A stretch of DNA of 64,000 nucleotides from Candidatus Egerieisoma sp. (lineage in GTDB: Bacteria; Bacteroidota; Bacteroidia; Bacteroidales; UBA932). The notes under the pieces were generated by a model. It saw nothing but the letters and a program-made list of their open reading frames with translations, had not been told where the DNA came from and ran no database searches. The stretch is taken from positions 17,924 through 81,923 of the forward strand of contig JAZNXX010000003.1 of the NCBI GenBank assembly GCA_045594125.1, given 5' to 3'. A program made the translations under genes and the position numbers. Positions 7,806 through 43,461 of the stretch are shown piece after piece. The first letter of the stretch is position 1, and each line of letters begins with the position of its first letter.

Positions 7806-8279
7806 CTAGAAACAGTATCTTACGCCAAAAGCTATACCTGTCCAGTCTGCCTCGTTGTCTGGGGTAAAGTAGAATCCGGGACGATAGTCAACTGAGAGCA
7901 GAAGGGGAATCTTCGGGAATGTATACTCAATACCGGCCTGGGCAAGAACTCCGAGACTGAATCCCTCCTTGAAGTCATTGTTGCTCCACGCTCCCATACC
8001 TGCACCGGCTCCAGCATACCATTGCCATATTCCGGATGTATTTACAGGAAGGTCAAAGAGCCATTGGTATGTTGCTCCTGCTGAAAATCCATATCTGTTG
8101 AAACCCAATGTTCCCTCAATTCTGCTTGATGGGGCCAGATATCTTTGGTAAGAGAGGTCTGCTCCCCAGCCTCCCCTTATACCTATGGCATTTTTGTAGC
8201 CATTGCCGCCCTGGGCATTGGCCGAAAGTGAAAATAGAGATGCCAAAACTACGGTAGTCAAAAACAATAATCTCTTCAT
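7806..8279 (-). CDS. small outer-membrane beta-barrel protein
   Basis: The start was moved to MKRLLFLTTVVLASLFSLSANAQ, which gives a signal peptide. The sequence is Gly/aromatic-rich with alternating beta-strands and ends in C-terminal 'GVRYCF'. Confidence 0.65.
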   Translation of the reverse strand: MKRLLFLTTVVLASLFSLSANAQGGNGYKNAIGIRGGWGADLSYQRYLAPSSRIEGTLGFNRYGFSAGATYQWLFDLPVNTSGIWQWYAGAGAGMGAWSNNDFKEGFSLGVLAQAGIEYTFPKIPLLLSVDYRPGFYFTPDNEADWTGIAFGVRYCF

Positions 8280-8292
8280 AATACTACTCAAT

Positions 8293-8778
8293 TTATAATT
8301 GTTTTGCTGCAATAAATTTGCCAAAAATGCGGGCTGCCGACTCCACCATCATTGCACAGGGCCTTTTTTTATAATATTCTGCTGTCCTTTCCTGCGCAAT
8401 ATGTGTTATCCCGTTCTCCTTTATATCCCCCAATCCGAGGAGCTCCCCACAATTGAGAGAGCGGTTTTCAGCCTTGAATGCCGCTGCAAGTTCCTGTACT
8501 ACTTTGTAATTGGCCGATTTGCCCTTTCCATCCGACGGATCTGTGGACCCACACTCCATTCCTGCAAGGATGAACATTCCGCAGGCGGCACCGCAGGTCT
8601 CGCGCATCCTTCCTATTCCTCCTCCAAAAGAGGAGGCTATCCTGAGCATTGTCTCAATATCTGCATTATAATAATCGGCCCAGGCGCCAACAACACTCTG
8701 AGAACAGTTGTAGCCCTGTTTGAAGAGCTCCACTGCCTTGGCTACCCTCATTTCAATATCTTGATCGGTAATCTTCAT
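8293..8778 (-). CDS. C_GCAxxG_C_C family protein
   Basis: 161 aa with 'YNCSQSV' and 'ETCGAACGMFILAG' (C-GCAxxG) motifs. Confidence 0.8.
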   Translation of the reverse strand: MKITDQDIEMRVAKAVELFKQGYNCSQSVVGAWADYYNADIETMLRIASSFGGGIGRMRETCGAACGMFILAGMECGSTDPSDGKGKSANYKVVQELAAAFKAENRSLNCGELLGLGDIKENGITHIAQERTAEYYKKRPCAMMVESAARIFGKFIAAKQL

Positions 8779-8781
8779 ATT

Positions 8782-10896
8782 TTATGATATTTGTGAATAA
8801 TCTCTCTTTATCTTTCCATCTTTGCGCAGGATAGCGAGCTGTTGGAGAAGCAGCATATTTTCGCTCTTTTCAAGGAGCGGGTCATTGTCGAGGATACTCT
8901 GTGCCAGTCTCCTTGCATCTTCAAGAATATGGGTGTCCCTGCCGAGATTGGCTATGTGCAGGTCCATTGCAAGACCGCTCTGGCTTGTACCCTCAATATC
9001 TCCAGGCCCCCTCATCCTCAGGTCGGCCTCAGCCAGTTCAAAGCCATCCTGTGTCTGGCACATCAGGTCAATTCTCTGTCGGCTCTCATTGCTCATCTTG
9101 TAGCCTGTCATCAGTATACAGTAAGATTTCTCAGAACCTCTGCCAACCCTGCCCCTCAGCTGGTGGAGCTGGCTCAATCCAAATCTCTCGGCACTCTCAA
9201 TGACCATTACTGAGGCATTGGGTACATCCACCCCAACCTCAATGACAGATGTTGCAACAAGAATATGCGCTTTACCCTTTGCAAAAAGCTCCATATCGTG
9301 GGCTTTGTCCTCATTCTTCTGTTTGCCGTGGACAACTGCTGTAATGTAATCGGGTGCCCTGAACTCCTCTACGATGGCCTGATATCCCTCTTCGAGGTTC
9401 TTGTAGTCCATCTTTTCACTCTCCTTTATGAGCGGATAGACTACAAAGACCTGCCGTCCGGAATCTATCTGCTTTCTCATAAAGTCAAATATTCTTTTTC
9501 TCTGATGTTCAGATGCGTGTATTGTCTCTACGGGTTTACGTCCAGGTGGCAGTTCATCAATTACCGATACATCAAGGTCTCCAAAAAGTGTCATTGCCAA
9601 TGTTCTTGGAATGGGGGTTGCCGTCATTACAAGTATGTGTGGCAAAACCTCTGACTTGTTCCAGAGACGGGAACGTTGCTCTACACCAAAACGGTGCTGC
9701 TCATCTATAACAGCCAGTCCGAGACTGTTGAATTCTACATTCTCCTCAATCAGCGCGTGGGTGCCTACTATAATCTTCAAACTGCCCTCTTTCAGTTGCG
9801 CAAGTGTATTGCGCCTCTCTTTTGTCTTTGTGCTTCCTGTAAGCAGACCGACAGTTACACCTGTATTGGCAAGGAGCTTGTAGATGCCCTTAAAGTGTTG
9901 TTGTGCAAGCACTTCTGTTGGAGCCATTATACAGGCCTGGTATCCGTTGTCTACTGCAATAAGCGAGATTAGGAGGGCAACCATTGTCTTTCCGCTGCCC
10001 ACATCTCCCTGTAGGAGCCTGTTCATCTGTCTTCCGCTTATCATATCACTGCGCATCTCCTTTATCACCCTTTTCTGGGCTCCTGTAAGCGGAAAAGGGA
10101 GGGAGTTGTAGCAGCTGTTGAAGGCCTCCCCGACACGTTTCATTACAATTCCTCTCTCCTTCTTCATCCTGACAGCTTTCTGTTTGAGAAGACTGAGTTG
10201 CAGATAGAAGAGCTCCTCATATTTCAGTCGGGCCTGGGCCTGTTGCAATGCCACACTGTTCTCAGGAAAGTGGATACTCTTGAGAGCCTTCCGTAGTGGT
10301 ATGAGCCCTTTTCTCTCCAGGATATATTGGGGGAGAGTCTCCTCAACTCTCTGCAGGTACTTTTCGATCAGGGTCTGTTCCAGCTTTGAAAAGGCCTTGT
10401 TGCCCAGATTGCTGTTCTTTAATTTCTCCGTACTTGAGTAGACCCCCATCATAGTGCTACCTCCAAAGCAGAGGTCGGAGGTGGGGGAGGTCAGCTCCGG
10501 ATGGACCATATTGACCGTTCCGTTGAAGTCGGATGGCTTTCCGAAGGCAATATACTCCGAACCGACTGCCAGCTTCTCCTTTATCCACTTTATTCCCTTG
10601 AAGAAGACGAGATCGATTGAACCTGTCGCATCACGCATAGTGGCAACAAGCCTCTTGTTGGAGGGTTGGCTGCCGGCCATATTTATTGAGGTAATCTTTC
10701 CCCTTATCTGGATGTATGCCATTGTGGGAACCACTTCTGAAATGGTGTAGATGTGGCTTCTGTCGAGATATCTGAATGGGAAGAAGTAGAGTAAATCCCT
10801 AAAGGTGAAAATGCCGAGCTCCTTTGAGAGAAGCTCTCCCCTTTTGGGACCTATCCCCGGAAGATATTTGATATCTGAATCAAGAATATTTGCCAT
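8782..10896 (-). CDS. recG: ATP-dependent DNA helicase RecG
   Basis: 704 aa. The N-terminus 'YLPGIGPKRGELL' is followed by a wedge domain, 'LQGDVGSGKT', 'VIDEQHRFGV' and 'LHQLRGRVGRG'. Confidence 0.92.
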   Translation of the reverse strand: MANILDSDIKYLPGIGPKRGELLSKELGIFTFRDLLYFFPFRYLDRSHIYTISEVVPTMAYIQIRGKITSINMAGSQPSNKRLVATMRDATGSIDLVFFKGIKWIKEKLAVGSEYIAFGKPSDFNGTVNMVHPELTSPTSDLCFGGSTMMGVYSSTEKLKNSNLGNKAFSKLEQTLIEKYLQRVEETLPQYILERKGLIPLRKALKSIHFPENSVALQQAQARLKYEELFYLQLSLLKQKAVRMKKERGIVMKRVGEAFNSCYNSLPFPLTGAQKRVIKEMRSDMISGRQMNRLLQGDVGSGKTMVALLISLIAVDNGYQACIMAPTEVLAQQHFKGIYKLLANTGVTVGLLTGSTKTKERRNTLAQLKEGSLKIIVGTHALIEENVEFNSLGLAVIDEQHRFGVEQRSRLWNKSEVLPHILVMTATPIPRTLAMTLFGDLDVSVIDELPPGRKPVETIHASEHQRKRIFDFMRKQIDSGRQVFVVYPLIKESEKMDYKNLEEGYQAIVEEFRAPDYITAVVHGKQKNEDKAHDMELFAKGKAHILVATSVIEVGVDVPNASVMVIESAERFGLSQLHQLRGRVGRGSEKSYCILMTGYKMSNESRQRIDLMCQTQDGFELAEADLRMRGPGDIEGTSQSGLAMDLHIANLGRDTHILEDARRLAQSILDNDPLLEKSENMLLLQQLAILRKDGKIKRDYSQIS

Positions 10897-37710: not shown

Positions 37711-37778
37711 CAGCGTAAATTTACCCTTTTGCAAGGCTTTTATGTTGAAATTCGCAAATATTGCATCAAAAATGCGAT

Positions 37779-39071
37779 ATGAAGAATTGTTCCAATTTTA
37801 TCTCTCTGGCACTGCTGTCAATACAGCTGATTGCCCTCTCATGCAGCAAGGATTTTGCCGATATAAAAACAGATTCCGGAAGCTCAGGAACTCTCCCGTT
37901 AAGGGATACTCTTCGGACGGTCGGTTATTTAGGCATTATAACTCTTAATGAGCTGGCGGTTAATGATACGGACCTTCTCTGGAGTGTGATTGAGGGTGAG
38001 GAGTGTGTGACCCTTACCGATTCTGTCATTATTGGAAGAAGAAAGGGCAGTGCTCTGCTGAAAGCCGCTTCTGGTAGCCTGGCAGGGCATATCAGAGTTG
38101 AGGTTACCGGTGAAAACTACATCCCTGTAGAGAATCTTCTGTTTGAAGTCAATGGAAGGGAGTCTCTCTCCGGGGATACACTGCTCCTTCAGAGCTGTGA
38201 TTGGGTTGGCCTTCTTCTGAAAGGGGTAAAGCCCGATAGTGCATCGCATCCGGCTATAAAGTCATTCAAGGCACTGTCTACACACTCTACCGGTGAACCT
38301 GATGAAGAGGGAAGCGCACTTTTTATGCGCAGTGTTATGGGGCTTGAAGAGGAGGAGATCAAGCTGCTCTCCCAAATACCATCACCGCTAAAATTGGGAT
38401 TCAGGGTCTATCCTTTTGTAAACCACTTTATCTTTATCGACAACAATCCGGATATCCACACCGATGACAGGCTCATTCCTGCTGACTCCATCCCAAGTAT
38501 GCTTCTTGAGTATGAACAGGAGATATATCCCGAGGGTTTAAGACTCTCGGAATGGGACCTATGGCAACTCGGAAAATATTTTACACGTGATGAGATATCT
38601 GTGAACAGAACCAGACACAGACTCTATTTTACAGATCTTGACAATTCTATAGAGATATGTAGGGAACAGAGGGGAAGCTATACGGGCATCTTTATAAAAT
38701 CAGGCGAAGAGCTGGAACTGGAGTGCAGTTTAAATGTGCCGGAGGAGTTTGAAAGTGGACTTTATTGGGCGGACGGTGTTTTTGAGGTTCACTCCAAATC
38801 ACTTGGAGAGGTCTATTCATTCGGAAACTATGCAAATAATGGCGGTAAACTTAAAATAAGCAGTTCAGGCCGTCTTTCACTTGACAGCTCTTTTTCAATT
38901 GATGGCAAGGATACCGCATATATCGGTACAGTATCTGCAATCCTGCTGCCTGATGACTGCAAAGAGTATTCTGCCCTCCATTTAAAGTATGAAGACCAGA
39001 ATTTCAATAAATGGATAGAGGAAATCTGCGGTATAAAAAACAGTGTGAAAATATATTGGATAAGAGATTAG
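37779..39071 (+). CDS. hypothetical lipoprotein with N-terminal Ig-like (Big_2-like) domain
   Basis: The start was moved to MKNCSNFISLALLSIQLIALSC, which gives a lipobox. The segment 'LLWSVIEGEECVTLTDSVIIGRRKGSALLKA' is Big_2-like. The rest is unassigned. Confidence 0.55.
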   Translation: MKNCSNFISLALLSIQLIALSCSKDFADIKTDSGSSGTLPLRDTLRTVGYLGIITLNELAVNDTDLLWSVIEGEECVTLTDSVIIGRRKGSALLKAASGSLAGHIRVEVTGENYIPVENLLFEVNGRESLSGDTLLLQSCDWVGLLLKGVKPDSASHPAIKSFKALSTHSTGEPDEEGSALFMRSVMGLEEEEIKLLSQIPSPLKLGFRVYPFVNHFIFIDNNPDIHTDDRLIPADSIPSMLLEYEQEIYPEGLRLSEWDLWQLGKYFTRDEISVNRTRHRLYFTDLDNSIEICREQRGSYTGIFIKSGEELELECSLNVPEEFESGLYWADGVFEVHSKSLGEVYSFGNYANNGGKLKISSSGRLSLDSSFSIDGKDTAYIGTVSAILLPDDCKEYSALHLKYEDQNFNKWIEEICGIKNSVKIYWIRD

Positions 39072-39146
39072 AATGATTTGCAGAAGGTTACGCTTCTTTT
39101 TCCTGTAATGGAAAGTTGACGGAAATAAAAAGCGTGATATAAAAAG

Positions 39147-39200
39147 GCCCGGTTGCGACTCTTTACATTTAAAGGGTTGCAATTCGGGCTTGGTTTTTTT
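39147..39200 (+). terminator. rho-independent terminator
   Basis: Hairpin gcccg-g-ttgc ... gcaa-tt-cgggc (5 + 4 bp with a small internal loop), followed by tggttttttt. Confidence 0.55.
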
Positions 39201-39300: not shown

Positions 39301-41160
39301 ATGATTCTGACACTGAATACTAAATTTGAGGGATATACTCCGGTGCAGATGCTTGGCAAGAGTACTTCATACAGGGAGGTGTATCTGGCGAAGGACTGCT
39401 GGGAACTGGATGTTGTTCTTACGGTATATGATATGAACAAATTGCCTGAGTGCTTTACAGATGGAAAGATTCCTGAGTTTGAAGTTATCCCACTATTGAA
39501 AAATGAAGTTTTTCCTGCATACTCTGATTGTGGCGACTATAACAATGGTGGTGTTTCATTACGGTGGATGGTAACAAAATATGTTGGTAGCACTACATTG
39601 ACTGAGTACATAAATTCAGATTGTCTCTACAATGAACGGGAGATGCTGCGCCAATTCTATAACTTGTTAGTTGCTGTTAAGGAACTTTCATTGCGTATGG
39701 GTGGAGGTTGTTGCAATAATATTTCTACGGATAATATTATTGTCTCGATGACTCCATCTGGAGAGATAAAGTGGTACCTGGTAGGGCTTAATTGCGTCTC
39801 TGGGACCTGTAATGGCCGTGCAACATTTGATACTAGTGTGCCATCTCTCATCTTTCGTGCCCCCGAAACATTGGTTGGACACTATAATGTCAGAACTGAT
39901 ATCTTCTCATTAGGCATTGTACTTGCGATTATTCTGCAAGGCAAACACCCTTGGGATGATTTTGTGAGAACAAATTCCGGGTTTCCGATAACTGCTATTG
40001 TAAAGTTGATGCGGGAAAATCCACCTGTATTATCCCATTCTGATGCACTAAATATTATCATAGCCAAAGCAATTGCAACTAAACCCTCTGAGAGATATAG
40101 GACTATTGAGGATATTGCTTTTGCTATAGCAAAATATCTTGGAGATGAGAAATTGAAGGGTTTTGAATGCTTTGCTCCTGAACACTCAAAACCTGTTTCA
40201 AGACTTTTCGAACATAAAACTGAAGAGGAGGTGCCAGTTGATAGTATGATACAACAAGCTCTTTCGCAACCAAAGTCCAATGTCCGGATTGAACGGGTTA
40301 AGGGCAATGGTTTCAAGGATGTGGCAGGTATGAAACAACTTAAAACTCTGCTGTCACGTAACTTTGTGGATATTGTCCAGAATCGCTGGCTGGCAGCACA
40401 ATTCCAGATTACTCCCCCGAACGGTACCTTATTGTGGGGGCCTCCGGGAACCGGCAAGACATTCATCTCACGCAAGCTTGCGGAGGAGAGCGGAATGTTA
40501 TTCAGTCTTATCAAGCCCAGCGATTTGGGTAATATCTATATCCACGGTTCGCAGAGTATGATTGCAGACCTCTTTACCCGCAGTGAGGAGCTGGCTGCCA
40601 AAAATAACTGTGGTGTTCTGCTGGTATTTGATGAGTTTGACAGCCTTGTGCCAAAGCGAGACGCCAATAAGGATAATAATCAGGCAAATGAGGTGGCAGA
40701 GTTCCTTACAAGGCTTAACGATTGTGCCGAAAAAAATGTCTATGTTGTTGCCACTACCAACCGTATTGACGCTATTGACCCAGCCATTATCCGCAAGGGA
40801 CGTATGGATGAGGTGATATATGTAGGACTTCCTGATGAAGAGGCCCGCAAGGAACTCTTGGAGCTGGAGCTGCTAAAACGTCCGCACGAAGATATAGACA
40901 CTGCCCGGATAGTAGAACTGACCAAAGGTTACTCATCAAGCGATATAAGTTTTATTGTAAAGGAGTGTGCGAGATGTTCATTTGATGAGAGTATCAAATC
41001 AAGGCATTTGGTAAAGATAAACCAGTCTCTGCTTGAGAAGACAATAGCCGGAACAAGACCTTCAGTGACTGAAGAGGAACTACGCCGCTTTGAACGGATT
41101 AAAGAATCGTTCACAAGAGAACATAAAAGGGAGCCGCTCAGAATAGGTTTTGTAAAATAG
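39301..41160 (+). CDS. protein-kinase-like (predicted catalytically inactive) domain fused to a classic-clade AAA+ ATPase
   Basis: 619 aa. The N-terminal half keeps kinase subdomains VIII/IX ('FRAPETL', 'TDIFSLGIVLAIIL.GKHPW'), but HRD is 'CNN' and DFG is 'LVG'. The C-terminal half has 'DVAGM', Walker A 'GPPGTGKT', Walker B 'LLVFDEFD', sensor-1 'VVATTN' and 'PAIIRKGRMD'. Confidence 0.8.
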   Translation: MILTLNTKFEGYTPVQMLGKSTSYREVYLAKDCWELDVVLTVYDMNKLPECFTDGKIPEFEVIPLLKNEVFPAYSDCGDYNNGGVSLRWMVTKYVGSTTLTEYINSDCLYNEREMLRQFYNLLVAVKELSLRMGGGCCNNISTDNIIVSMTPSGEIKWYLVGLNCVSGTCNGRATFDTSVPSLIFRAPETLVGHYNVRTDIFSLGIVLAIILQGKHPWDDFVRTNSGFPITAIVKLMRENPPVLSHSDALNIIIAKAIATKPSERYRTIEDIAFAIAKYLGDEKLKGFECFAPEHSKPVSRLFEHKTEEEVPVDSMIQQALSQPKSNVRIERVKGNGFKDVAGMKQLKTLLSRNFVDIVQNRWLAAQFQITPPNGTLLWGPPGTGKTFISRKLAEESGMLFSLIKPSDLGNIYIHGSQSMIADLFTRSEELAAKNNCGVLLVFDEFDSLVPKRDANKDNNQANEVAEFLTRLNDCAEKNVYVVATTNRIDAIDPAIIRKGRMDEVIYVGLPDEEARKELLELELLKRPHEDIDTARIVELTKGYSSSDISFIVKECARCSFDESIKSRHLVKINQSLLEKTIAGTRPSVTEEELRRFERIKESFTREHKREPLRIGFVK

Positions 41161-41220
41161 CTGATAGATATTCTGGGATATGGCACTCTATAATTATTGA
41201 ATAAATCACAAATTAATATT

Positions 41221-41712
41221 ATGAACCAGAAAGAGATTATAATTGACGAACTGAAGGCGATGGGTTTTGAGCCTGTCGAATTGGACGATATAGGCTATCG
41301 CTTCAAGTACGATGGGGTGAATTATCTATATGCGCCTAACGAAAATGATGAACAGTTTTTACGCATCGTTATCCCTAATCTGCAAGAGGTAACGGATGAG
41401 AATAGAGTAGCGGTGCTGGAGGCTATGCAAGAAACCAATTTGATGCTGAAGTATGCAAAGGTTTGCATTTTGTATGGGGATAGTGTATGGGCAATTTATG
41501 AGCATCGTTTTGATTCCACTGAGAATTTGACAGATTTGATGGAGCACATTATCAGTGTTCTTAATACAACTCAGCGGGTCTTCTACAAAATGATGAATGG
41601 TGAAGAGGTCGTTGGATCTCCAAAGAAGAGTGATGATTACTCTGACGATGCCATAGAGGCAGAATTGCAGAAGAGGCTTGATAGCATTGGGGATAGTGAG
41701 GAATATAACTAA
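41221..41712 (+). CDS. small acidic protein, YbjN/T3SS-chaperone-like fold suspected
   Basis: 163 aa from the ATG at 41221; the track starts at the TTG at 41197. The pattern 'IIDELKAMGFEPVELDD.GYRFKYDG..YLY....DEQFLRIVI' resembles YbjN-family topology. It is a paralogue of the next ORF. Confidence 0.6.
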   Translation: MNQKEIIIDELKAMGFEPVELDDIGYRFKYDGVNYLYAPNENDEQFLRIVIPNLQEVTDENRVAVLEAMQETNLMLKYAKVCILYGDSVWAIYEHRFDSTENLTDLMEHIISVLNTTQRVFYKMMNGEEVVGSPKKSDDYSDDAIEAELQKRLDSIGDSEEYN

Positions 41713-41723
41713 AAAATAGTGAT

Positions 41724-42107
41724 ATGAATACATATGAACTGGCAAAAAAATTTATAGCTGGACAGCGATACCGGGTATGTTACGAAGAGTGTTCGGAAGG
41801 TTGCATTGTTTTCCGTTACCAGATGAATACAATGCATATCTTCGTAAACACTGAAGATGAACACTTCTTATTTATGACATTGCTGAATTTTACAGATGTA
41901 ACTAAGGAGAATTTAGAACAGGTTGAGGAAAACTGCCATCAGTTAAACAAAGAGACAAAACTCGTAAAATTTTATGTTATGAACGATATGATTTTGGCAA
42001 CAGTGGAGGCATATTACCTCGCCGAAGAGGATTTCAATTTTCAGATGATGAATGCTCTAAAGCATCTTGTAGAGGCAAAAGTAATGTATAAAAAGTTGTA
42101 CGAATAG
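41724..42107 (+). CDS. small protein, paralogue of 41221-41712 (YbjN-like suspected)
   Basis: 127 aa, 11 nt downstream of the previous gene. 'FRYQMNTMHIFVNTEDEHFLFMTLLNFTDVTKENLEQVEE' aligns with 'YRFKYDGVNYLYAPNENDEQFLRIVIPNLQEVTDENRVAVLE'. Confidence 0.6.
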   Translation: MNTYELAKKFIAGQRYRVCYEECSEGCIVFRYQMNTMHIFVNTEDEHFLFMTLLNFTDVTKENLEQVEENCHQLNKETKLVKFYVMNDMILATVEAYYLAEEDFNFQMMNALKHLVEAKVMYKKLYE

Positions 42108-42181
42108 TTAATAGAGCTATTATAAATAGGACAAACTTATACTGGATATCCGATAAATATATTCTTTAAATGTAACACAAT

Positions 42182-42358
42182 ATGATTATGAAAAAGGTGA
42201 AAGAAGTACGAGGACTAAAATGTCCAAACCACGATTATGTAAGGGATAACTACCATTTCTTGTATGAGGAGGCATATTTGGGCGCAAAACCTCTGCCGAG
42301 TACAAGATGTATAAAGTGTGGCTATACAATGTCATTGCACAAGGCTCAGAAGTATTAA
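42182..42358 (+). CDS. 58-aa zinc-ribbon-like miniprotein (not in the ORF track)
   Basis: My own translation is MIMKKVKEVRGLKCPNHDYVRDNYHFLYEEAYLGAKPLPSTRCIKCGYTMSLHKAQKY*. It has a CPxH...CxxC arrangement and is co-directional within the cassette. Confidence 0.4.
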   Translation: MIMKKVKEVRGLKCPNHDYVRDNYHFLYEEAYLGAKPLPSTRCIKCGYTMSLHKAQKY

Positions 42359-42386
42359 TCAAATTATAAAACTAAACTATAACAAT

Positions 42387-43061
42387 ATGACAAAGATCTG
42401 TTTCCCAAATTATAATAAAGGTGAGTTTGCATCGTTGGCCGACGCATTGAAATTTATGCGCCGTAATGACAACTTCGTTTCAAGATATGCATTGTGCAAT
42501 ATTGTGCAATACAATATCTGCTACCGGAATCACCTGCGTCAATACGGTATTGACAGCTTGATTTTCAGGCTTCTTGATGAGGCGCCTAAGTTGAAGCAAG
42601 AGAGGGTGCTGCTTTATTATTTGCGTAAATGGGCAAAAGATGAAAAACTTGCTGATTATGATATCCAGTGTTATAATATAAAAGATAAAGTAACCATTCT
42701 AGGGCATACATTTAATGGCCTTGAAGATATTAGTGAACACTTTGAACTATATACCAGGGATGGTTATGGCGCTATGCACCATCTGTTTTCGGTGGAAGAC
42801 AGAGAGTACGACGATATACATATAGGCCATTTTTTTGAAAACTATCCAATTTTTGACAGCTCGGATCTAAGTGATGACCGCACCTATCAGAACTACATCT
42901 TTCGTTCCAATCCTATTACTGAAAGTGATATGCAGGAGGCCTTCAATGTATTCCACGGCTTTAATTTCTGCAGAGTGCACGAAAATATTCCGGTTGAGAC
43001 TCTGCCCATTCTCTACTATAACGGGAATGGTAAGTATATGCTGCTGGCAACAAAAAGATGA
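42387..43061 (+). CDS. hypothetical protein (orphan, 224 aa)
   Basis: The ATG at 42387 is preferred over the GTG at 42318, which would overlap the miniprotein ORF. No recognisable motif. Confidence 0.55.
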   Translation: MTKICFPNYNKGEFASLADALKFMRRNDNFVSRYALCNIVQYNICYRNHLRQYGIDSLIFRLLDEAPKLKQERVLLYYLRKWAKDEKLADYDIQCYNIKDKVTILGHTFNGLEDISEHFELYTRDGYGAMHHLFSVEDREYDDIHIGHFFENYPIFDSSDLSDDRTYQNYIFRSNPITESDMQEAFNVFHGFNFCRVHENIPVETLPILYYNGNGKYMLLATKR

Positions 43062-43123
43062 CACTTTGGCAAAGAGGTTTAAGGATACAAAAACAAATTG
43101 ACATTTAAACTGATTATTCTATT

Positions 43124-43297
43124 ATGGAAACAAAAACTGGCTCAAATGTAAAACATACAGCTGTCAAAGTGACTCTTATTGCTGTTATTTCACTTATGCT
43201 GCTTATCCCTTTGGCAATGATAGAGGATGTTATTAATGATCGTGAACAGACAAAGGATTCCGTTACAGAGGAGGTGGCAGACTCCTATGCGTTGTGA
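43124..43297 (+). pseudogene. creD: creD (cell envelope integrity protein) 5' fragment, 57 codons only
   Basis: 'VKVTLIAVISLMLLIPLAMIEDVINDREQTKDSVTEEV' matches the N-terminal TM helix and following motif of CreD ('LLLLIPIMLIRQVIVERADYRSDVEDAI' in E. coli). Full-length CreD is about 450 aa. Confidence 0.6.
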
Positions 43298-43382: not shown

Positions 43383-43429
43383 GAGAGGCCGGATCAAAAT
43401 TGCTTTTGACCCGGCCTCTCATCTTTTTT
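43383..43429 (+). terminator. rho-independent terminator
   Basis: Perfect 10-bp GC-rich stem gagaggccgg/ccggcctctc, followed by atctttttt. Confidence 0.65.
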
Positions 43430-43461
43430 AAATATCCATCAGTACAGGAAGTGACAAGGGC

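Follow-up and report, generated by a model that had tools for sequence, protein, structure and literature searches.

A pseudokinase-AAA+ fusion and YbjN-like chaperones form the conserved core of a reduced accessory cassette in a Bacteroidales chromosome

When a dead protein kinase is found fused to an AAA+ ATPase and followed by four small companion genes, do the five genes belong together, and what might they do? We addressed this question for a cassette in a 64,000-nucleotide (nt) stretch of DNA from Candidatus Egerieisoma sp. (Bacteroidales; assembly GCA_045594125.1, contig JAZNXX010000003.1), which is called the window here. A preliminary description had read the cassette as a five-gene accessory system, possibly serving defence. 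Its five open reading frames (ORFs) all lie on the + strand at 39301-41160, 41221-41712, 41724-42107, 42182-42358 and 42387-43061 (genes 1-5), with gaps of 60, 11, 74 and 28 nt in this order, exactly as had been described. The starts of gene 2 at 41221 and gene 5 at 42387 are internal ATG codons, and homologue alignments back these shorter forms over longer ORFs beginning with TTG or GTG. In brief, genes 1-3 are the conserved unit, and we give an even chance to the reading that the cassette arrived by horizontal transfer and represents, in reduced form, a Bacteroidales accessory module for chaperone-assisted, ATP-driven protein remodelling.

Gene 1 (39301-41160, + strand) encodes a protein of 619 amino acids (aa) that joins a Hanks-type pseudokinase (39301-40170, approximately residues 1-290) to a single classic-clade AAA+ ATPase (40306-41160, approximately residues 336-619), and 2385 homologues of it were found. 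Both parts are recognized by Pfam, with 41.9 bits for Pkinase (E 1e-10; above the cut-off of 31.7) and 97.7 bits for AAA (E 1e-27), the latter accompanied by AAA_lid_3. The fusion recognized in the preliminary description is real. The N-terminal domain has the Hanks-type fold, scoring above the Pkinase gathering threshold and carrying the C-lobe motifs, and can be aligned to PknB over residues 24-272 (~250 residues). The same alignment reveals that the catalytic residues have been lost: the beta3 Lys is replaced by Thr41, the HRD motif reads C138-N139-N140, with Asn140 in the place of the catalytic Asp, and the DFG motif reads G-L-N, leaving no acidic residue in that segment. Judged by the beta3 Lys, the HRD Asp and the DFG Asp, gene 1 is not an active kinase. 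These substitutions are conserved in the near family, and in an alignment of 11 family members reaching down to 52% identity (alignment A1) the C-lobe elements APE, DIFSLG and HPW and the subdomain XI Arg265 are all invariant.

To follow the N-terminal domain further, HMMER was run with this domain only against 1.8 billion representatives, which yielded dozens of 50%-identity clusters of ~580-645 aa that match from residue 1. Most of these share the dead state, with H-Y/F-N for HRD, G/x-L-x for DFG and Thr/Val for the Lys. One distant subclade (P0308, P0312, P0315, P0319, P0346, P0353 and P0411) keeps the Lys together with H-N-D and D-L-G, and on these residues it is probably an active kinase. 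In one Candidatus Egerieisoma metagenome-assembled genome (MAG; locus L006), a second kinase-AAA+ paralogue with 30% identity was also observed at 8020-9606 on the - strand, placed upstream of the main copy and divergently oriented to it.

The AAA+ half has the full set of classic-clade features. In alignment A1, the Walker A (GPPGTGKT) and Walker B (LLVFDEFD) motifs, sensor-1 N487, the arginines R498 and R501 of the second region of homology (SRH), the pore loop Y413-I-H-G416 and the GYSSSDIS lid motif are conserved, and the motif positions are invariant except for two, the Walker A Thr and the pore-loop I414. Because every mechanistic AAA+ motif is conserved, gene 1 should, by its sequence, be a working, substrate-threading ATPase. 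NCBIfam and PDB searches place the module closest to Cdc48/p97, VAT, PAN and FtsH; in PDB the top match is to Cdc48/p97 (whole-protein E 1e-70) and is strongest over the D2 domain, and the NCBIfam models of CDC48/PAN/FtsH type all match below their cut-offs. With these proteins it shares the Walker motifs, sensor 1, the SRH arginine fingers, the aromatic pore loop and AAA_lid_3, it is 30-40% alignable to both D1 and D2 of Cdc48, and it has an N-terminal domain where they carry a substrate- or adaptor-binding domain. In contrast to Cdc48, gene 1 has a single AAA+ module rather than a D1-D2 tandem, lacks the double-psi barrel/OB N-domain and a protease domain, and bears a Hanks-type pseudokinase at its N terminus. 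Membership of the CDC48/p97 family proper (TIGR01243) was rejected, given 141.5 bits versus a cut-off of 802.65, the single AAA+ module and the kinase-like N-domain. The protein ends in a conserved R-[IV]-G-F motif (41140-41157), in which G616 and F617 are invariant and which stands 0-3 residues from the C terminus. This tail loosely recalls the docking tails of proteasomal ATPases; no chambered protease lies nearby.

The two genes that follow encode small acidic proteins, as had been noticed, and their kinship to YbjN was borne out by structure prediction. Gene 2 (41221-41712, + strand) encodes a 163-aa YbjN-like (TY-chaperone) paralogue with an acidic C-terminal tail of ~35 residues, found in six of eight aligned homologues, and gene 3 (41724-42107, + strand) a 127-aa protein with the fold of YbjN and type III secretion chaperones; their isoelectric points are 4.28 and 5.1, respectively. 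That the two are paralogues was established by hhalign between their families (99.2%, E 1.5e-19). Pfam YbjN recognizes gene 3 directly (23.3 bits; cut-off 22), next to a weak TY-Chap1 match, and gene 2 below the cut-off (18.5 bits, E 2.5e-3), so that gene 2 enters the YbjN/TY-chaperone superfamily through its hhalign match to gene 3. PDB sequence-profile searches with genes 2 and 3 were uninformative, and the fold emerged only from the predicted structure: the AlphaFold2 (AF2) model of gene 3, with a predicted local distance difference test (pLDDT) value of 91.6, matched E. coli YbjN (6VU7) in Foldseek at a template modelling (TM) score of 0.73-0.76 and probability 1.00, followed by AmyR, DR1245, SycH, ExsC, SycE and CesT (TM 0.6-0.76 overall). 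Like members of the YbjN family and class I type III secretion chaperones, the products of genes 2 and 3 are small and acidic, and the adjacency of the two paralogues suggests a dimer such as that of SycN/YscB. They differ from YbjN and the type III chaperones in the extra acidic tail of gene 2, and from the type III setting in that there is no secretion system and that the partner is a Cdc48-like AAA+ protein with a pseudokinase, not an F1-type ATPase of a type III secretion system (T3SS).

We next compared loci from species-representative genomes and from contigs encoding 12 diverse homologues, using tblastn and clustering of all ORFs; they fall into ~16 lineages, 14 of them independent and with readable flanks. 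A YbjN-like gene adjoins the fusion gene in 13 of the 14. Ten lineages (the window, L001/81, L085-87, L005, L083/84, L203, L088-90, L091-93, L006 and L183) have two YbjN-like paralogues, the gene 2 position being directly 3' of the fusion gene in 10 lineages, and three (L008/9, L182 and L184-186) have one. The linkage persists where the N-domain is 27-34% identical to that of the window, including the apparently live-kinase clade: the loci of P0308 and P0353 (L182, L184-186) contain a single YbjN/TY-Chap1 gene, not two paralogues, recognized by a precomputed Pfam TY-Chap1 match and, in L184-186, by a YbjN match too. Across loci, genes 2 and 3 vary in sequence identity in step with gene 1 (r = 0.81 and 0.92). 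The conserved unit is thus a (pseudo)kinase-AAA+ protein with one or two YbjN-like chaperones, that is, genes 1-3, and genes 4 and 5 are optional. Of the proposed linkage of all five genes, therefore, the part concerning the YbjN pair stands and the part concerning the 224-aa product of gene 5 does not, since gene 5 is linked to the core in 3 of 14 lineages and gene 4 is intact in one other lineage.

Gene 4 (42182-42358, + strand) encodes a 58-aa basic miniprotein with a CxxH...CxxC pattern, a putative zinc ribbon for which Pfam and NCBIfam returned weak Zn-ribbon matches only. The Cys/His pattern is conserved in the three intact homologues (L001, L081 and L082; ~90% identity), and the gene is intact in just the window and this closest clade. 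In L085 (12880-13050), as in L086 and L087, the homologue is interrupted by an in-frame stop and its CxxH half-site is gone; because it is a pseudogene there, gene 4 is dispensable for the core.

Gene 5 (42387-43061, + strand) encodes a 224-aa conserved protein, an optional accessory that could be a client, a sensor or an enzyme. Its 227 homologues share 21 invariant columns and near-invariant Cys, His and Asp residues, and its AF2 model is of good quality (pLDDT 82.9; predicted TM score, pTM, 0.81). The model had no significant Foldseek match in PDB or BFVD (TM at most 0.2 versus PDB, E > 0.04), no family match was obtained in Pfam, NCBIfam, PADLOC or PHROGs, and a PDB profile search and per-member Pfam scan gave sub-threshold noise only (Xol-1_N, SUKH_6). 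Apart from the core, gene 5 occurs in a CHAT/NUDIX/ADP-ribosylglycohydrolase (ARG) array (L174-177) or alone among housekeeping genes in Prevotella (L178/179). It is our best candidate for a client or sensor.

Is the cassette native to this chromosome? Arginine codon use in gene 1, estimated earlier at ~24 CGN versus ~12 AGR, recomputes to 23:13, so the tally was essentially right. For the whole cassette the CGN:AGR ratio is 38:24, compared with 253:650 over the 40 remaining window genes (odds ratio 4.1, Fisher p = 1.9e-7), and the guanine-plus-cytosine (GC) content is 0.400 versus 0.429 for the window, which upholds the compositional oddity suspected before. By tblastn against 23 related loci, none of the window's flanking genes (two short-chain dehydrogenases/reductases (SDRs), a 436-aa lipoprotein, an esterase and a seven-transmembrane (7TM)-HD protein) stood beside a homologue of the cassette, and flanking genes differ in every sampled locus. 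Among the matches listed, those in species representatives are scattered over Alistipes-labelled MAGs, Prevotella, Egerieisoma, Lentimicrobiaceae and Duncaniella. Because no two loci have the same flanks, Arg codons are used atypically and GC is lower, we regard the cassette as accessory, in agreement with its first appraisal; it looks foreign to this chromosome and may well have been acquired horizontally. The idea of a housekeeping syntenic core gene was rejected, since flanks differ everywhere, and so was membership of the 436-aa upstream lipoprotein in the unit, as it is absent from all related loci.

Two strong hairpin terminators bracket the cassette. On the 5' side, an intrinsic terminator (39145-39200, + strand; previously given as 39147-39200, and real) ends the upstream gene 37761-39071: its hairpin at 39145-39191 is followed by a U7 run and has a folding energy of -29.5 kcal/mol (z = -6.0; 0 of 200 shuffles as stable). 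No convincing terminator was found between the cassette genes. Immediately downstream lies a creD remnant (43124-43297, + strand; Pfam CreD E 6e-10). It had been called decapitated; the reverse applies, as its N-terminal 57 aa are kept and the body is lost, and it is tail-less because what remains covers positions 3-46 of the 428 in the CreD profile. The remaining ~380 codons are absent ahead of a hairpin terminator at 43383-43430, which is shared with the convergent esterase gene and forms the 3' boundary of the unit (-26.8 kcal/mol, z = -6.2; inverted repeat I4, 94% complementary, then a U-run). The remnant marks a deletion on the 3' side of the cassette. A promoter-like TTGACA-16-TATTAT stands just 5' of it, at 43098-43125, and since no further terminator comes before the one at 43383-43430, cassette and remnant probably share a transcript.

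Beyond these boundaries the window contains ordinary chromosomal and housekeeping genes, among them a fimbrial operon, oxidoreductases, ClpB and GyrA, and no defence genes were found among the genes flanking the cassette. Insertion scars were sought as flanking direct repeats and tRNA targets, and none was found at the cassette, the nearest tRNA being 6 kb off; there is no integrase at the cassette, which is thus not recognizable as mobile-element or prophage cargo.

How does this copy compare with its relatives? Most of them have the core within a long array of genes that all point the same way: one for a CHAT-TPR protease, a 56-aa gene, two genes of ~450 and ~415 aa, then the fusion gene and two chaperone genes. 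What follows these genes varies and is drawn from a PTP/R-P phosphatase with SIR2, a NUDIX-winged helix-turn-helix (wHTH) regulator with ADP-ribosylglycohydrolase, a calcineurin-like phosphatase, gene 5, RelA/SpoT-like or stand-alone alarmone-type HD proteins, and vWA, DUF1232, PP2C and WG-repeat proteins; restriction endonuclease (REase)-type and SLFN/AlbA genes also occur next to related loci, and a single relative has an IS110 transposase in its vicinity. Even closely related arrays differ by modules gained or lost. When all island proteins were searched against the whole window by tblastn, nothing beyond the cassette's own genes was found nearby, and the window copy is a stripped-down version of these larger arrays. 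The earlier statement that no effector can be recognized accordingly holds for the window and fails for the relatives, in which SIR2, CHAT, PTP, ADP-ribosylglycohydrolase and RelA/SpoT-like genes stand beside the core.

Two features of the arrays were recorded in passing. The ~450-aa and ~415-aa genes (U450 and U415), directly upstream of the fusion gene in most relatives (L081 7283-9988, L085 7322-9988, L203 1474-4263 and L183 1489-3758) and absent from the window, have no Pfam or PADLOC match; U415 shows a weak likeness to region 2 of extracytoplasmic function (ECF) sigma factors (E 0.07), and a C-terminal stretch of it looks helix-turn-helix-like by eye. A full-length RelA/SpoT-type protein of 626-657 aa (HD, synthetase, TGS and ACT domains) is encoded a few genes 3' of the core in three lineages (L085-87, L088-90 and L203), and may be either an island-specific alarmone enzyme or a housekeeping gene at a shared insertion site.

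These observations allow us to propose how the module might work. Gene 1 would most likely assemble as a hexameric unfoldase of the classic AAA+ type and thread protein through its YIHG pore loops. Its kinase domain, having lost phosphotransfer chemistry and kept the substrate-binding C-lobe, may serve as a docking or sensing platform in the place that the N-domain occupies in Cdc48/p97. The products of genes 2 and 3 would most likely act as a heterodimeric adaptor that holds a client by an extended peptide and presents it to the ATPase, and hydrolysis of ATP would drive the stripping or unfolding of this client and so its release, activation or recycling, by analogy with type III secretion chaperone-effector complexes, which are dissociated by their ATPase. 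Genes 4 and 5 would be lineage-specific accessories. In the relatives, the module probably gates or services the enzymes of the arrays (CHAT, SIR2 and PTP, NUDIX and ARG, RelA/SpoT-like, vWA, DUF1232).

A conflict-type or ADP-ribose-related role for this remodelling module is pointed to by the company it keeps in other genomes and by the pattern of gain and loss. Several observations weigh on the other side. Domain scans and tblastn recognized no effector, protease, ADP-ribosylglycohydrolase or regulator in the window, and in one lineage (L003/L004) the fusion gene stands without a chaperone gene in its neighbourhood. The lineage sample is small and not a census, and the complexes are hypothetical. 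Domain identities, the state of the motifs, paralogy and fold, linkage, variable context and atypical codon use are shown; the oligomer, the threading, the heterodimer, the identity of the client and the biological role are what we infer. The minimal two-gene forms stand by ordinary genes, such as priA (L008/9) and CotH or lipocalin (L184-186). A lone gene 5 among Prevotella housekeeping genes argues against a toxin dependent on this machinery. PADLOC matched gene 1 to IetA, TRIP13, PD-T4-6 and MAD6/8, all at domain level through generic AAA or kinase content, and no PADLOC model matched the SIR2, CHAT, PTP and ARG genes of the L081 island. Two scans of viral contigs (IMG/VR) detected generic AAA+ domains only and no family member. 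A metagenome scan for related loci was dominated by a generic Walker-A pattern and returned only unrelated AAA+ genes. Because there is no effector in the window, bare two-gene forms lie beside ordinary genes and the defence database gives no support, caution is needed on the role: the defence function first suspected is a plausible candidate.

Those two-gene forms by ordinary genes also favour a serious rival, which we judge somewhat unlikely: that the module is a regulatory or proteostasis unit outside conflict, switching partners in a stress or signalling pathway as ExsC/ExsE and CesT/CsrA do. Proteins of the YbjN/type III chaperone fold indeed include regulators (AmyR, ExsC, CesT-CsrA and PA14_16140), the island neighbours are mostly signalling enzymes (PP2C, PTP, kinases, RelA/SpoT and a sirtuin), U415 could be a sigma-like protein, and the lack of PADLOC support fits as well. 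Harder to reconcile with such a role are the patchy distribution, the variable genomic position and the foreign-like codon use; moreover, gain and loss of modules between close relatives is a hallmark of conflict systems.

We consider it quite improbable that the cassette is a self-contained anti-phage system of the abortive-infection type, in which the pseudokinase would sense a phage cue, the AAA+ protein remodel the chaperone pair and gene 5 be set free as the toxic effector. Its accessory nature, atypical composition and different context in each genome would suit this, as would the CHAT, SIR2, REase-type and SLFN/AlbA genes and the IS110 transposase beside relatives, the PADLOC matches to IetA, TRIP13 and PD-T4-6, and the invariant polar residues of gene 5, whose conserved Cys and His are compatible with an enzyme. 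However, those matches are generic (78.8 bits to IteA versus a cut-off of 510), the window has no nuclease, pore-former, TIR or SIR2 and no flanking defence genes, and gene 5 is missing from most core loci and can stand by itself amid housekeeping genes, where an unguarded toxin would hardly be expected.

The individual described systems were considered in turn. IetAS was rejected on the score to NF042959 (IteA equivalog) just given and for want of an IetS serine protease in the cassette. The likeness to TRIP13-HORMA of the type III cyclic oligonucleotide-based antiphage signalling system (CBASS), raised in the preliminary description, had to be abandoned, as the partner fold is that of YbjN and type III secretion chaperones and neither Pfam nor PADLOC produced a HORMA or CD-NTase match. 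PD-T4-6, which is a protein kinase, was rejected because gene 1 lacks the kinase residues and the PADLOC match is domain-level (49.5 bits). No description of a kinase-AAA+/YbjN-chaperone combination was found in the literature, full text included, consistent with the initial impression that no system of such composition had been described.

A further alternative starts from the ARG-centric systems predicted to counter ADP-ribosylation (Iyer, Burroughs, Anantharaman, Aravind, Viruses 2022, section 3.8; PMC9503650), which combine a NUDIX or WYL regulator, ARG, R-P, calcineurin or HD phosphatases, and vWA or TY-chaperones. The core could be a chaperone/ATPase sub-module of such ADP-ribosylation reversal on host proteins, its AAA+ protein and TY-chaperones dealing with modified or misfolded targets, and the window copy an orphaned remnant without glycohydrolase, phosphatase and regulator, which we likewise regard as quite improbable. 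The related loci share with the published list NUDIX-wHTH, ARG, R-P/PTP, calcineurin-like and alarmone-type HD phosphatases, vWA and TY-chaperones, accreted or lost between relatives; genes 2 and 3 count as its peptide-binding chaperone (TY-Chap, vWA or SseB). ADP-ribosylglycohydrolase is present in L081, L083/84 and L174-176; together with NUDIX-wHTH it shares an array with the core in L081 and L083/84, and in L083/84 and L174-177 the two come immediately behind gene 5 homologues. That the cassette abuts a deleted creD gene would fit a remnant, too. In the window, by contrast, just the chaperone element is found: no ARG was detected by tblastn of island proteins over the whole window or by Pfam on the cassette and its neighbours (~21.9-59.5 kb scanned), and the NUDIX/WYL-HTH regulator and coupled phosphatase, present in relatives, were likewise absent by Pfam and tblastn. 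The core, furthermore, exists without ARG or NUDIX in L005, L085-87, L088-90, L091-93, L183 and L203, while in L182 and L184-186 it consists of two genes and nothing more. Decay is not evident, because none of the five ORFs in the window is disrupted and the ATPase motifs of gene 1 are complete. TY-Chap1 was defined in Iyer et al. 2022, where no AAA+ or kinase partner or component is mentioned (PMC9503650).

One observation elsewhere in the window may concern these islands: a DUF1810-like sequence at 91-519 shares 64% identity with DUF1810 genes of L174, where they belong to the gene 5/NUDIX/ARG island. As 39 kb separate it from the cassette, its presence may be a coincidence, or it may be another piece of an island of this family.

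Finally, a secretion-related unit, in which chaperones and ATPase ready gene 5 or another cargo for export, as type III pairs or EccA of type VII secretion systems (T7SS) do, is highly improbable despite the class I type III secretion chaperone fold of gene 3 and a weak NCBIfam EccA match (2e-5), because no apparatus genes occur in the window or any related locus inspected, gene 5 has no signal sequence or recognizable export domain, and the ATPase is of the Cdc48 type rather than the F1 type.

The reading of the cassette as a reduced protein-remodelling module can be taken one step further. Tentatively, and with more doubt than conviction, we suggest that the (pseudo)kinase-AAA+ protein with its dedicated YbjN adaptors is an undescribed nucleoside triphosphatase (NTPase)-centred switch of Bacteroidales conflict islands, whose unfolding activity would release or activate variable effectors (CHAT, SIR2, ADP-ribose enzymes or gene 5). 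If true, this would provide a new regulatory core for bacterial immunity or counter-ADP-ribosylation and the first mechanistic context for the YbjN family outside secretion.

The YbjN family is widespread and its function is poorly understood, and in known systems proteins of the type III chaperone fold pass their clients to F1-type ATPases. Chaperone genes conserved beside a Cdc48-like unfoldase thus offer a direct, testable hypothesis on YbjN function. The fusion itself is an unusual bacterial architecture, and because its kinase domain is inactive in most clades but apparently still active in one, the kinase-AAA+ clades form a natural series for the transition from a kinase to a docking domain. 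Screens for defence systems have relied mainly on E. coli and Bacillus and under-represent gut Bacteroidales; if the module gates SIR2, CHAT and ADP-ribose enzymes, it would be a new regulatory core among the conflict systems of gut Bacteroidales.

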